Positions 4,596-41,792 of a DNA stretch of 64,000 nucleotides are shown piece after piece. Numbering within the stretch: the first letter of the stretch is position 1; each line of letters opens with the position of its first letter. This stretch comes from a virus. Taxonomy: Duplodnaviria; Caudoviricetes. Location: the IMG/VR virus record IMGVR_UViG_3300020577_005688, positions 1-64,000 of that record, one strand, 5' to 3'. Position numbers and translations under genes: made by a program. The notes beneath the pieces were generated by a model. The model worked only from the letters and a program-made list of their open reading frames with translations. It was not told the DNA's origin and searched no databases.

Positions 4596-4744
4596 CGACG
4601 TCCTTCGTAGCTTCCAATGTAGAGTTTCCGGAAGTGCCATCTATGTTGGATTTCTTACCTCAGATTGAGGCTGCAATAGGCACATAGAGCGGTGCAAATC
4701 TGTTTCCACTGAAAGCTTTCTTTCACTCCTTGTGAGGACTCAAA

Positions 4745-4974
4745 TGCTCATCAAAGTAACGAACTACTGCTCAATGGGATGCAGCCACTGCATGGAAGAC
4801 TCGACAGTGGCTGGGAAGCATATGACGGATGAGACGTTCGAGAAGGCACTCGAACAGACCATTCGTCTCGAACACGAAGCGTGGTCTGCAGGTGCTCCTC
4901 CATTCGTGTTGTTGAGTGGTGACTCTTGCCCTGTGGTGGTTCTCCTAGAAATAGAGCGAATGGAGCAGGTATAA
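4745..4974 (+). pseudogene. Truncated radical SAM protein fragment
   Basis: ATG after GAGG; TNYCSMGCSHC (CxxxCxxC) then LLSG, but the frame ends where GGEP is expected (~75 aa). Confidence 0.7.
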
Positions 4975-5030: not shown

Positions 5031-5828
5031 ATGACGGCAACGGAATTCATTCGGAAGTTCTTTGTCGAGAATCCGAAAGCATCGGTCAACGACTGCGCTC
5101 GGGAGATGGACAAGGTGAAGGTCGAGGGAACCTTCGACACTGGTCTCATCAGTCGCATTCGTATGAAGGAGCGGCAGAAGACGATGCCTGCAGCTGCTCC
5201 TGTCATTCCAGATAAGGGGAAGCCGCTCTTCCAACCTCCAATCGTGAGGAAGAAAGAGTGGCGAGATGGTCAGACATGGTGGAAAGACACCAAACCAAAG
5301 GAGGTGGAGAAGGTGGAGGAAAAGGTCGAAGCTCCCAAGGAAGTAACTCCTCCAGAGTCCGAGAGCATCACGACGAAGAAGCGTCGCTTCGTGAACTCCT
5401 ACGTGGAGAAGCTCACCTCAGAGGAGTTGGCAAAGCAGACTTGCCACTCAGTGCAGGAGGCTGTGAAGAAAGAGTTCACTACTGGACTCGACTTCAAGTA
5501 CGTGGCTGAGACTCTTCGCATCGCAAAGGAGATGGCAAACATCCCCATGAAGCGAGCCACTGTGAAGAAGAAGGCCCCTGCTCAGAAGACTGCAAAGTCC
5601 GTCTCGAAGAAGGTCACAAAGACCAAGGACCAGACAAAGCAGTCCTTCGATCGAATTGTCTCTTGGGGTTCGAACAACTTCAAGATTCTTCCAGAGGAGC
5701 GAGTGCGCTCGTTCGTTGGAGATCTCCTGATGGGCACTGGAGAGGATGCAACGATGACGGACCCGGCAACCATTCGAGTGTGGAAGCCCGTTCCATCCAA
5801 GATTCGACTGCAGATCGACATCGGCTGA
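5031..5828 (+). CDS. Lys-rich hypothetical protein (possible DNA binding)
   Basis: AAGGAG RBS; 265-aa ORF with phage-like codon usage. Confidence 0.8.
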   Translation: MTATEFIRKFFVENPKASVNDCAREMDKVKVEGTFDTGLISRIRMKERQKTMPAAAPVIPDKGKPLFQPPIVRKKEWRDGQTWWKDTKPKEVEKVEEKVEAPKEVTPPESESITTKKRRFVNSYVEKLTSEELAKQTCHSVQEAVKKEFTTGLDFKYVAETLRIAKEMANIPMKRATVKKKAPAQKTAKSVSKKVTKTKDQTKQSFDRIVSWGSNNFKILPEERVRSFVGDLLMGTGEDATMTDPATIRVWKPVPSKIRLQIDIG

Positions 5829-5947
5829 TTCAACACCCCACCCTTGACCAGGGCTTACCACTTGCACACGTTGTGCATGGGGGTGTTGGGGAGAACTTGC
5901 ATTGTGCAAGTTCTTCTTTAGCTCTCAGCAAAGATGAGACAGTCCAT

Positions 5948-5965
5948 GGCATAAGAGTATTGAAG
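5948..5965 (+). promoter_or_regulatory. GGYATAAG motif (putative phage promoter)
   Basis: GGCATAAGagtATTGAAG. Confidence 0.65.
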
Positions 5966-6130
5966 AAAAGAATTTGGCCAGTTCGCTTTTCTTCATCTAT
6001 GGATTGGTGAACCTCTGACTGGACTCTTTGGTTCCACCCCTCCTTCCAACGAGCACAGAAGACTCACCACTCGTGGATGTTGTTCGAACTGGTAGCCGGG
6101 TCTTGCACGCACCAAGACCCGGCTTTTTTT
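5962..6130 (+). ncRNA. Putative ~165-nt structured small RNA (rod hairpin with CCUCCU loop plus terminator)
   Basis: Bounded by the promoter motif and a strong terminator; nested helices 5978-5985/6085-6092, 5994-6001/6072-6079, 6005-6010/6064-6069 and 6028-6031/6046-6049; no credible ORF. Confidence 0.6.
6095..6130 (+). terminator. Intrinsic terminator
   Basis: GCCGGGTCTTG/CAAGACCCGGC followed by T7. Confidence 0.9.
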
Positions 6131-6181
6131 CATCTTAGAGCCATCCAGGGCTCACTCAACCAACACACAGAAAGGACACTG

Positions 6182-6298
6182 ATGAAGAGACTCATCGACT
6201 GGGTCAAGAGGGAAATTGCTTGGTGGCGATTTCATCGAGACATGGCCGAGAAAGCAGTTCATCTGCAACCTGCAGTTCAAAGGAGTTCGAAGAGATAA
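6182..6298 (+). CDS. Small hypothetical protein (38 aa)
   Basis: AAGGA RBS before ATG 6182. Confidence 0.5.
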   Translation: MKRLIDWVKREIAWWRFHRDMAEKAVHLQPAVQRSSKR

Positions 6299-6329
6299 GT
6301 AAAATGTAGGAAGAAATTCGTCTTCCTAC

Positions 6330-6833
6330 GTGCGTAGTTTCACAGAGGGGAGTGCGTTTGTGCGTATCGAAGGACCAAAAGCGGATTTGATTGTTTCGGG
6401 GATCATCAATCTCATTCAGAGCATGACGTCGACGCTGCAGGAGGTGGGAAGTGCAGCGAGGGCGTACGCGAAGAAGACTGAGTGGGAGTACGAGATCATC
6501 CATCGGCGTTCTCCTGTGACGGACGAGGAGATCGCCAAGGACGATGCAATCATGAAGATGGAACACGACGCTCGTGAGCGGGAGGCCCGAGTCCGCCTCC
6601 TGGAGGTCCAGGCTCGCGAGGAGTTGGCCAAAGCCCAAAAGGCTGAGGCCATCGTTCGGCTCAAGACAGCATCAGTGCGGCAGAACCAGCAGCGTCAGGC
6701 GCAGAGCCAGCAGTCGCGTCCGAAGTTGCCGCCGTTCAATGAAGTCATGAAGGGGGAAACGGTGAAGAAGCAAGGAGAGGGGCAACTCACCCACAGTCTG
6801 GGTGAAAAGCTGAAGAGCGACCAGCCTTCCTGA
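6330..6833 (+). CDS. Coiled-coil hypothetical protein
   Basis: ORF followed by a hairpin at 6843-6865; start uncertain. Confidence 0.7.
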   Translation: MRSFTEGSAFVRIEGPKADLIVSGIINLIQSMTSTLQEVGSAARAYAKKTEWEYEIIHRRSPVTDEEIAKDDAIMKMEHDAREREARVRLLEVQAREELAKAQKAEAIVRLKTASVRQNQQRQAQSQQSRPKLPPFNEVMKGETVKKQGEGQLTHSLGEKLKSDQPS

Positions 6834-7013
6834 TAAGGAAGGAGGACGACCCTTCGGGGTCGTCCTATCATTAACTTTCAGCTTCGAACGACTTGCTCAA
6901 TCAACAGTGGCTTATCTGTCATGAGAGCCAAATACACCACACCGCATGCTTCGCAGAGGAAATGAGAAGTCTGCTCTGTTCGAGGCGTGCTCTTGGTCAT
7001 CTTCTTCAAGTTC

Positions 7014-8149: not shown

Positions 8150-8168
8150 GGCATAAGAAGGTATTGAG
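8150..8168 (+). promoter_or_regulatory. GGYATAAG motif (putative phage promoter)
   Basis: GGCATAAGaaggtATTGAG in a divergent intergenic gap. Confidence 0.6.
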
Positions 8169-41090: not shown

Positions 41091-41792
41091 GTGGGAAGCC
41101 TTTTCTATTCTTTCCAAGAGGCTGCGAACAGCCTTGGGTGCTCGAAGCGCACGATTCACAACTACATCAAACAGGGTTACCTGCGAAAGTCAAACCAAGA
41201 AGGGAAGGTAGTCCTTTTCAGGGAGGACGTCGAGCAGCTTGCCGCAGAGACGGGCGTAAACCTCCCACCGTTCAACCGGAAGAATTTCTTCTTGTTGTTG
41301 CGGAGAGTTGAGAAACTCGAACAGGACATGCTGGTGGCAAGGAGAAGACTGGACATTCAGGCTGACCCTCTGAGGCCCTCTGCACAGGAGGCGGCTCTAT
41401 TGATGAGAGAAGCGGAGCATGCGTTTGTTCGTGGAACGTGGTCAGAGCCAGAGATGGAGCAATGGGTGTCTGTCTTTGAGCGCCTCGATGAGACAGCCCT
41501 TGAGTCAATGAAGAAACATCTTGGGAGTCTCAATCCCTATGAACCCTTCTTCAAGCTCGTGATGGCCATGATGCAGAGTGTCGCTTCGATTGAAAACTTC
41601 GAAACATCTCTGCCTGCGCAGCTCATGCACAAGAAGTTGGATGAAGGACGTAGGAAGATGAGGGAGTGCATCTTCATGTGGCTCAAGGTCTCCTCGCCAC
41701 TCAATGCCGATGAGGTCGTTCAGTCTCTGGATACAGAGAAGGAAAAGCTCTTCAAGAAGCTCAAAGCAAATAAACCAAGTCCCACGGCATAA
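41091..41792 (+). CDS. MerR/excisionase-type HTH DNA-binding protein
   Basis: YSFQEAANSLGCSKRTIHNYIKQGYL; AGGAGG RBS. Confidence 0.85.
   Translation: MGSLFYSFQEAANSLGCSKRTIHNYIKQGYLRKSNQEGKVVLFREDVEQLAAETGVNLPPFNRKNFFLLLRRVEKLEQDMLVARRRLDIQADPLRPSAQEAALLMREAEHAFVRGTWSEPEMEQWVSVFERLDETALESMKKHLGSLNPYEPFFKLVMAMMQSVASIENFETSLPAQLMHKKLDEGRRKMRECIFMWLKVSSPLNADEVVQSLDTEKEKLFKKLKANKPSPTA

Follow-up and report, generated by a model that had tools for sequence, protein, structure and literature searches.

The window analysed here comprises the first 64 kb of a linear IMG/VR virus record of 141,350 bp, for which completeness is estimated at 75%. It comes from a large uncultured phage whose genes carry canonical AGGAG/GGAG ribosome-binding sites; among its products are a large terminase, a major head protein, fibre proteins of the collagen-like kind and a helicase. 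On its plus strand, a 353-nt intergenic gap follows a 265-aa gene (5031-5828) and holds a conserved non-coding structured RNA of that strand, framed, as originally noted, by a promoter motif and an intrinsic terminator. This RNA is present only once in its own genome. Two plus-strand genes lie downstream. The first ORF 3' of the RNA, orf38 (6182-6298), encodes a small, basic, Trp-rich protein of 38 aa, which is kept in L005 (29 aa) and L018 (38 aa), with related sequence in L020, L021, L024 and L025. The second, orf157 (6360-6833), has a GTG start at 6360 and encodes a charged, coiled-coil-like protein of 157 aa; it is our candidate for a regulated gene. Homologues of orf157 (P0004-P0012) are 47% (L018) and 52% (L005) identical to the window copy; the protein has no match in Pfam or PHROG, and a search of the Atlas gave no usable match. 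The succession of RNA, small ORF and larger ORF is conserved in the window group, L018 and L005. In the same three, a hairpin folds between orf38 and orf157 (6306-6329, plus strand), with one compensatory pair in L005.

Several features of the surroundings deserve mention. Past orf157, a G+C-rich hairpin, AGGACGACCC-CGAA-GGGTCGTCCT (6843-6866), separates convergent genes ending at 6833 (plus strand) and 7014 (minus strand); it is a probable bidirectional terminator that closes the orf38-orf157 unit. On the other side, the radical-SAM gene of the window (4732-4974) is an 80-aa remnant of what is in relatives a 260-aa gene accompanied by five to six more small genes; measured against L002:2690-5919 and L003:2415-5926, the window is short of about 3.3 kb between 4921 and 4922. 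Compared with the window over 5031-6185, L004 is a mosaic, with about 70% identity over the 265-aa gene and 96-100% from about 6185 on, which puts a recombination boundary at or beside the RNA.

Promoter motif, rod and terminator

The unit opens with a bipartite motif on the plus strand, composed of a conserved -35-like element, CAGCAA (5926-5931), and of GGCATAAGA (5948-5956), which contains the -10-like CATAAG (5950-5955). The promoter motif that had been noticed ahead of the fold is real as an over-represented repeat: GGCATAAG occurs six times in the window, always on the plus strand, versus 0.69 copies expected, a number reached in none of 100 shuffles, and eight times in the 141-kb record. 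It differs from the standard sigma-70 consensus, a scan for which returned nothing at the locus, and a sigma-54 reading of GGCAT...TTG was discarded for a spacing two bases too long. Both halves of the motif are conserved. An xxGCAA element stands 18 nt upstream of (C/G/T)ATAAG at this locus, at the motif copies at 41786 and 122990, and in L018, L005 and L024, and the hexamer is kept as GATAAG or TATAAG in L018, L005, L020, L021, L024 and L025. From the hexamer to a purine-rich 5' hairpin the distance is a constant 6-7 nt, and the layout across lineages can be written as xxGCAA (or CAGAAA), 18 nt, (C/G/T)ATAAG, 6-7 nt, and a purine-rich strand that opens a hairpin. Because this geometry of promoter and hairpin is fixed across lineages, the conserved motif suggests that transcription starts at about 5962, giving the RNA a 5'-terminal hairpin. 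Other copies of GGCATAAG(A) are found at 2599, 4579, 8150, 41786 and 44466 in the window and at 68511 and 122990 in the remaining genome, all on the plus strand before plus-strand genes. Behind the copy at 8150 there is once more a 5' hairpin of the purine/pyrimidine type, GAGGGAG/CUUCCUC, and the first gene after the copies at 41786 and 44466 has a GAGGGG ribosome-binding site.

The 5'-terminal hairpin, GAAGAAAAG/CUUUUCUUC (5962-5994, plus strand), pairs 5962-5970 with 5986-5994 at -7.0 kcal/mol and holds in its loop the 5' arm of the basal stem of the rod described below; it is the alternative 5' hairpin originally described as competing with that stem. In L018 and L005 the hairpin is kept with both strands shortened by one base in step (AAAA/UUUU to AAA/UUU), and equivalent purine/pyrimidine hairpins stand 3' of the same promoter in L020, L021 and L025 and at 8150 in the window. 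Folds in which this hairpin is imposed lie about 10 kcal/mol above the minimum free energy (MFE) structure, and we therefore regard it as a kinetic, early structure.

The main element is a rod (5977-6093, plus strand), a single long interrupted hairpin of about 38 base pairs. Refolding recovered its helices and apical loop in the positions originally assigned to them. The basal helix GCCAGUUCG/CGAACUGGU joins 5977-5985 with 6085-6093 and is followed by helix 2, CAUCUAUGG/UCGUGGAUG, with three G.U pairs, and by the helices UGGUGA/UCACCA, UCU/AGA, CUG/CAG, CUC/GAG and UUGG/CCAA; in the MFE structure the largest internal loops measure 5+2 nt. The rod is capped by the 14-nt loop UUCCACCCCUCCUU (6032-6045, plus strand), with CCUCCU at 6039-6044 and CCCCUCC at 6037-6043. 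With an MFE of -42.9 kcal/mol versus -27.5 +/- 3.6 for dinucleotide shuffles (z -4.27), the rod is more stable than all 200 controls; together with the terminator it reaches -67.6 versus -43.6 (z -5.68), again matched by none of the shuffles. The minus strand of the locus has a weaker fold and a diffuse ensemble.

Directly 3' of the rod follows an intrinsic terminator (6094-6131, plus strand), as strong as anticipated, with a 12-bp stem (6094-6124) that includes eight G-C pairs, the loop CACGCAC (6106-6112) and a U7 tract (6125-6131). Given this G+C-rich stem and its U7 tail, most transcripts should end here, which would yield an RNA of roughly 170 nt. RNAalifold, like the MFE folds of individual sequences, also pairs the A-rich 5' end (GAAGAAA, 5962-5968) with the U-tail (6125-6131) in the window, L018 and L005. 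Such pairing would turn the terminated RNA into a closed three-way junction; it may also be no more than a trivial match of A with U.

Conservation and covariation in related phages

Syntenic contigs were reached via homologues of two flanking proteins in large protein collections, and a covariance model was built from close copies of the RNA. The model scores 212-218 bits on eight contigs of the window group, 126 bits on L018/L019 (contigs of 197 kb and 153 kb) and 74 bits on L005, so that the RNA is present in three phage lineages whose orf157 proteins are only 47-52% identical. Other routes yielded little. The locus had no BLAST match among 50,697 phage records, scans of IMG/VR guided by three neighbouring proteins gave no relatives, and exact DNA patterns of the loop and the terminator had zero matches in IMG/VR. 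The promoter-proximal 18-mer matched there 22 times, one match being real by the covariance model (L035, from the same record as L018). A pattern scan of metagenomes gained only two near-identical contigs, its seven other matches being due to chance, and a scan of genome contigs with P0011 found no match and hence no clue to the host.

Between the window and L003 the RNA is 97-98% identical, while identity in the upstream gene is down to 53-85%; no other stretch nearby is as well conserved in L003 as the RNA. Covariation in related phages, suggested earlier as a check on the fold, is present. Among six distinct sequences, standard pairs fill 95.9% of the cells, and changes on both sides are seen in 23 of 50 pairs, compared with 6.2 +/- 2.0 in shuffles and 3-7 when the partners are slid by 1-3 columns, in an alignment that was fitted to the model and in which one or two divergent sequences (lineages L018 and L005) carry most of the signal. 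The basal stem is rewritten in L018, from GCCAGUUCG/CGAACUGGU to GACCGUUUCA/UGAAACGGU, and the middle of the rod is different in L005. L018 and L005 each have a rewritten terminator stem, which covaries at six of its 12 pairs, its loop UGCACGCACCA being identical in the three lineages. The three conserved G.U positions of helix 2 would be A.C mismatches on the opposite strand, and they therefore fit the plus strand only.

The sequence elements that stay fixed comprise a promoter-proximal (G/C/T)ATAAGAGTATTGAAGAAA, the loop core CCCCUCC, the terminator loop UGCACGCACCA and the 13-nt GAGGGGAGUGCGU discussed below. Rod size varies between lineages from 109 to 117 nt, and the helices differ in L005, L022 and L024. 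CCCCUCC is identical in the window group, L018, L005 and the analogous units of L022 and L024, and in all five RNAs its probability of being unpaired is 0.83-1.00. On the strength of this conservation and covariation in related phages, the structure of the RNA is under selection and not a chance fold, as judged by sequence comparison.

Could the region instead be explained by a translated ORF? We find none that is conserved. The RNA is overlapped only by short, non-conserved ORFs, and although orf38 of the window can be extended upstream in frame, this extension is absent from L005 or lies in another frame there. With lineage indels that are not multiples of three, and with compensatory pair changes, we rejected a small ORF as the explanation. 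Known RNA families are likewise absent: Rfam 15 at gathering thresholds gives no match across the whole window, including to 6S, C4 antisense RNA, ar14/CcsR1 cuckoo, RsaE, LhrC and Y RNA, and at E values up to 10 the interval 5800-6200 gives four chance-level matches (sX14, SorX, eeev_FSE, mir-2060), all far below threshold and driven by terminators and hairpins. The RNA is thus a new family with a known style of seed.

Two further contigs carry units of similar layout. In L022 (1724-1934), a promoter-like TATAAA precedes a 5' hairpin with GGCCAAGUUC in its loop. A rod follows that is closed by AGUUC/GAACU and has CCUCCCCUCCCCC in a loop of 18-22 nt, and the unit has a terminator as well. Because a second GGCATAAG motif, serving the next gene, follows this terminator, the L022 RNA is a self-contained unit. 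In L024 (1990-2152), GGGATAAGA is followed by a hairpin with the loop UCUCCCCCUCCC, a terminator and an orf38-like gene. The stems of both are unrelated in sequence to the window rod, only the layout being alike, and neither of the covariance models R1 and R2 detects either unit. We therefore do not count them as proven homologues; they are analogous in architecture and possibly homologous.

The G-rich element before orf157

What could the loop be for? An invariant, single-stranded, C-rich loop that is the sole unchanging part of the rod fits a base-pairing sRNA that silences translation, as the original prediction had it. The candidate target is the G-rich element GAGGGGAGUGCGU (6345-6357, plus strand) in the ribosome-binding region of orf157, 13 nt that are identical in three lineages amid diverged surroundings. 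Its GAGGGG is complementary to CCCCUC of the apical loop and its GUGCGU to ACGCAC of the terminator loop; on geometric grounds, the two loops should be unable to reach one contiguous 13-nt target together with the rod intact.

When the downstream region of each lineage was searched with its own loop, the homologous G-rich element came out as the best or second-best partner in each of five lineages, with -12.4 kcal/mol in the window (top 2.4% of the segments scanned), -13.1 in L018 (top 1.7%), -14.5 in L005 (top 1.1%), -29.8 in L024 (top 0.1%) and -22.7 in L022 (top 0.06%). In L018 the start of orf38 scores better than the element, at -18.6. Complementarity amounts to 6-8 nt per site. Genome-wide, the match of the window loop to orf157 (6 bp, -12.4 kcal/mol) ranks 1942 of 70,664 segments (top 2.7%) and is not distinctive; the terminator loop at the same site ranks 821 (top 1.2%). 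The best non-self site in the genome (133,775-133,798, minus strand) lies within an ORF and not at a start. Longer C runs in the loop accompany longer G runs in the element. A cross-lineage matrix of loops and G-rich elements gave no cognate preference, and, loop and element lacking cognate specificity, no intermolecular covariation backs the pairing. As a counterpoint to pairing, G-rich sites are to be expected before genes anyway. GAGGGG-type sites precede several genes of this phage, three of them behind this class of promoter.

The position of the element differs between relatives. In the window group, L018 and L005 it is the ribosome-binding site of orf157; in L021, L025, L022 and L024 it has no start codon following it and sits in the loop of a small hairpin. 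These hairpins, at L021:449-476, L025:880-908, L024:2301-2325 and L022:2309-2345, immediately follow the stop codon of the gene for the small protein. Their G-rich loop (e.g. GAGGGGGGGA) is complementary to the C-rich loops of the family, and one stem pair is compensatory between L021 and L025.

How, then, might the RNA act? Our leading reading, to which we would give a little under an even chance, is that the phage makes a terminated sRNA and that this RNA uses its C-rich loop to bind G-rich ribosome-binding sequences, the GAGGGGAG site of orf157 being the likeliest target. Transcription would start at about 5962 from the phage-class promoter xxGCAA-N18-CATAAG. The 5'-terminal hairpin would form first and then be overtaken by the more stable rod (5977-6093), and the intrinsic terminator (6094-6131) would stop most transcripts. 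The rod would present the 14-nt loop, with the invariant CCCCUCC as a seed that could pair with G-rich, Shine-Dalgarno-type sequences (GAGGGG/GGAGGGG) and keep ribosomes off them. Its prime target would be the GAGGGGAG ribosome-binding site of orf157, located 250 nt downstream in the same cluster, such that the terminated leader RNA would brake the translation of read-through messages from its own operon, comparable to the action of P1 c4 on icd-ant. The RNA may in addition act on further messages, of phage or host, that carry GAGGGG-type sites. We infer from the sequence all four elements of this reading, namely production of the RNA, its ending at the terminator, pairing of its loop with RNA, and the identity of the partner; on the same grounds, the RNA is probably a translation brake.

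The style of the proposed seed has precedents in bacteria. In RsaE/RoxS, in hairpins 7, 13 and 14 of Staphylococcus aureus RNAIII and in Listeria LhrC, C-rich loops that are unpaired bind to G-rich Shine-Dalgarno regions and so block initiation. These RNAs of the Bacillota resemble ours in having the seed in an apical loop and a Rho-independent terminator at the end, but they are unrelated to it in sequence and architecture and carry several seeds, whereas the present RNA is phage-encoded, with one seed and no Rfam match. In the Cuckoo/ar14/CcsR sRNAs of Alphaproteobacteria, with their CCUCCUCCC loops, a C/U-rich anti-Shine-Dalgarno loop is similarly conserved and the stems vary; however, they consist of two or more short motif hairpins, in place of one long rod with a single CCCCUCC loop, and again there is no Rfam match.

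Possible leader function, other roles and known RNAs

Is the RNA an independent product or part of a leader? Sequence inspection of the window, L018 and L005 found no promoter motif between the terminator and orf38, so that orf38 and orf157 depend on read-through or on upstream transcription. The promoter and 5' hairpin recur in L020, L021 and L025, where they stand directly before the orf157 homologue, with neither rod nor terminator. As the promoter motif is missing 3' of the terminator and in these more distant relatives would directly drive the orf157 homologue, the unit is leader-embedded. The description of the RNA as stand-alone has thus to be divided: it does not apply to the window, where the RNA lies in the leader of orf38-orf157, and it does apply to the self-contained analogue in L022.

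The same two observations speak for the alternative that we consider unlikely but the most serious, in which the RNA is a cis-acting leader, its rod and terminator forming an attenuator or a put-like antitermination element of orf38-orf157 with the short RNA as a by-product. Whether RNA polymerase reads through would then depend on a factor, from phage or host, by which the conserved loops are recognised, a version that we hold to be just as unlikely. Such a role would agree with the conserved alternative 5' hairpin and with a terminator loop, UGCACGCACCA, that is invariant while its stem covaries, as for a recognised site. However, by eye no upstream sequence can pair with either terminator arm as an antiterminator, rod and terminator abut and do not overlap, and the downstream gene of L022 has its own promoter motif after the terminator of the RNA. 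Moreover, a two-gene operon gives processive antitermination little to act on. The put RNAs of phage HK022 are two short stem-loops that act on long, multi-terminator operons. Like our RNA, they are structured, directly follow an early phage promoter and have a terminator and genes downstream, and they differ from it in that a single rod precedes a two-gene operon here, and in that L022 has a separate promoter after the terminator.

Rather doubtful, in our view, is a more elaborate form of own-operon pairing, in which the C-rich loop and the G-rich element after the small-protein gene would be a conserved kissing pair, working as an antisense switch of timing or immunity with the terminator loop as a second recognition site. 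It is with similar doubt that we consider this a previously undescribed system of a clade of large environmental phages, parallel to P1 c4-icd-ant and evolved independently. The P1 operon comprises c4, icd and ant1/2 together with a C4 binding site (PMC8198154). As in P1 and P7 (immI operon c4-icd-ant) and the related CI RNA of P4, a structured RNA heads the operon here and is followed by a small-protein gene and a larger gene. The short loops of c4 are complementary to a ribosome-binding region further down the same transcript, a complementarity that in our case is predicted only. But c4 RNA is about 77 nt long, cloverleaf-like and released by processing, unlike the present 115-nt rod with its own terminator, and the two have no similarity in sequence or structure, with no Rfam match at E values up to 10. 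A pairing of c4 RNA through two loops was reportedly described by Citron and Schuster in 1990.

Less probable than these is a global anti-Shine-Dalgarno sponge, an abundant early RNA that would mimic the 3' tail of 16S rRNA, mask the strong ribosome-binding sites of host messages and aid host shut-off, and we consider it improbable. The 16S tail reads ...CACCUCCUU, which the loop (C)CACCCCUCCUU resembles; its CCUCC can pair with any GGAGG site, and the motif is kept whatever the arrangement of the neighbouring genes. Yet the genes of the phage itself share such sites and would suffer too, and the invariant extra C run of CCCCUCC favours GGAGGGG over a generic GGAGG.

We regard as very improbable a protein-binding RNA, be it a decoy, a scaffold or a processing site, for instance an RNase III substrate or stabiliser, or one whose loop binds a cold-shock-domain protein or RNA polymerase. 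A long, imperfect double-stranded rod with invariant loops is also typical of protein recognition, and a cold-shock-domain gene lies nearby in L003, L004 and L018 (about 3.5 kb away in relatives), but rod length (109-117 nt) and helices vary, with the loop alone being fixed, and there is no Rfam match to 6S or Y RNA. The original suggestion of a 6S-like decoy of RNA polymerase finds no support in particular. Like 6S RNA, the present RNA owes its rod shape to the pairing of its 5' half with its 3' half; the large central bubble by which 6S mimics an open promoter is missing, however, and MFE and centroid structures contain only small internal loops and bulges.

That the RNA has no function of its own and is a 3' or 5' UTR structure kept through recent recombination among close relatives is most improbable: in the window group, most contigs closely resemble one another, and the mosaic L004 is near-identical to the window downstream of 6185, but the diverged L018 and L005 (orf157 identity 47-52%) keep the fold by compensatory changes with identical loops, and in L003 nothing in the vicinity is conserved as well as the RNA.

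To our knowledge, lytic or large environmental phages have hardly been surveyed for regulatory RNAs, and only few of these RNAs have been assigned a mechanism. The translation brake favored here would be a compact unit of promoter, rod, invariant 7-nt seed and terminator with a specific candidate target 250 nt away, the new angle being the G-rich element of its own operon as candidate partner of the C-rich loop. If this own-operon pairing is true, c4-like control arose independently, and the combination of rod and seed could be used as a pattern in searches for phage sRNAs; if it is false, the RNA is still a well-supported new structured family for Rfam.

A final observation concerns the 3' end of the upstream 265-aa gene, where 5829-5915 contains two more conserved hairpins. 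The first, a long hairpin CAACACCCC...GGGGUGUUG (5832-5886), has the inner stem TGCACA/TGTGCA; the second (5890-5912), followed by UCUUCUUU, is terminator-like. Both show compensatory changes in L003, L004, L006 and L005, and the central CTTGACCAG(G/A)G(C/G)TTACCACTTGCA of the region is invariant.
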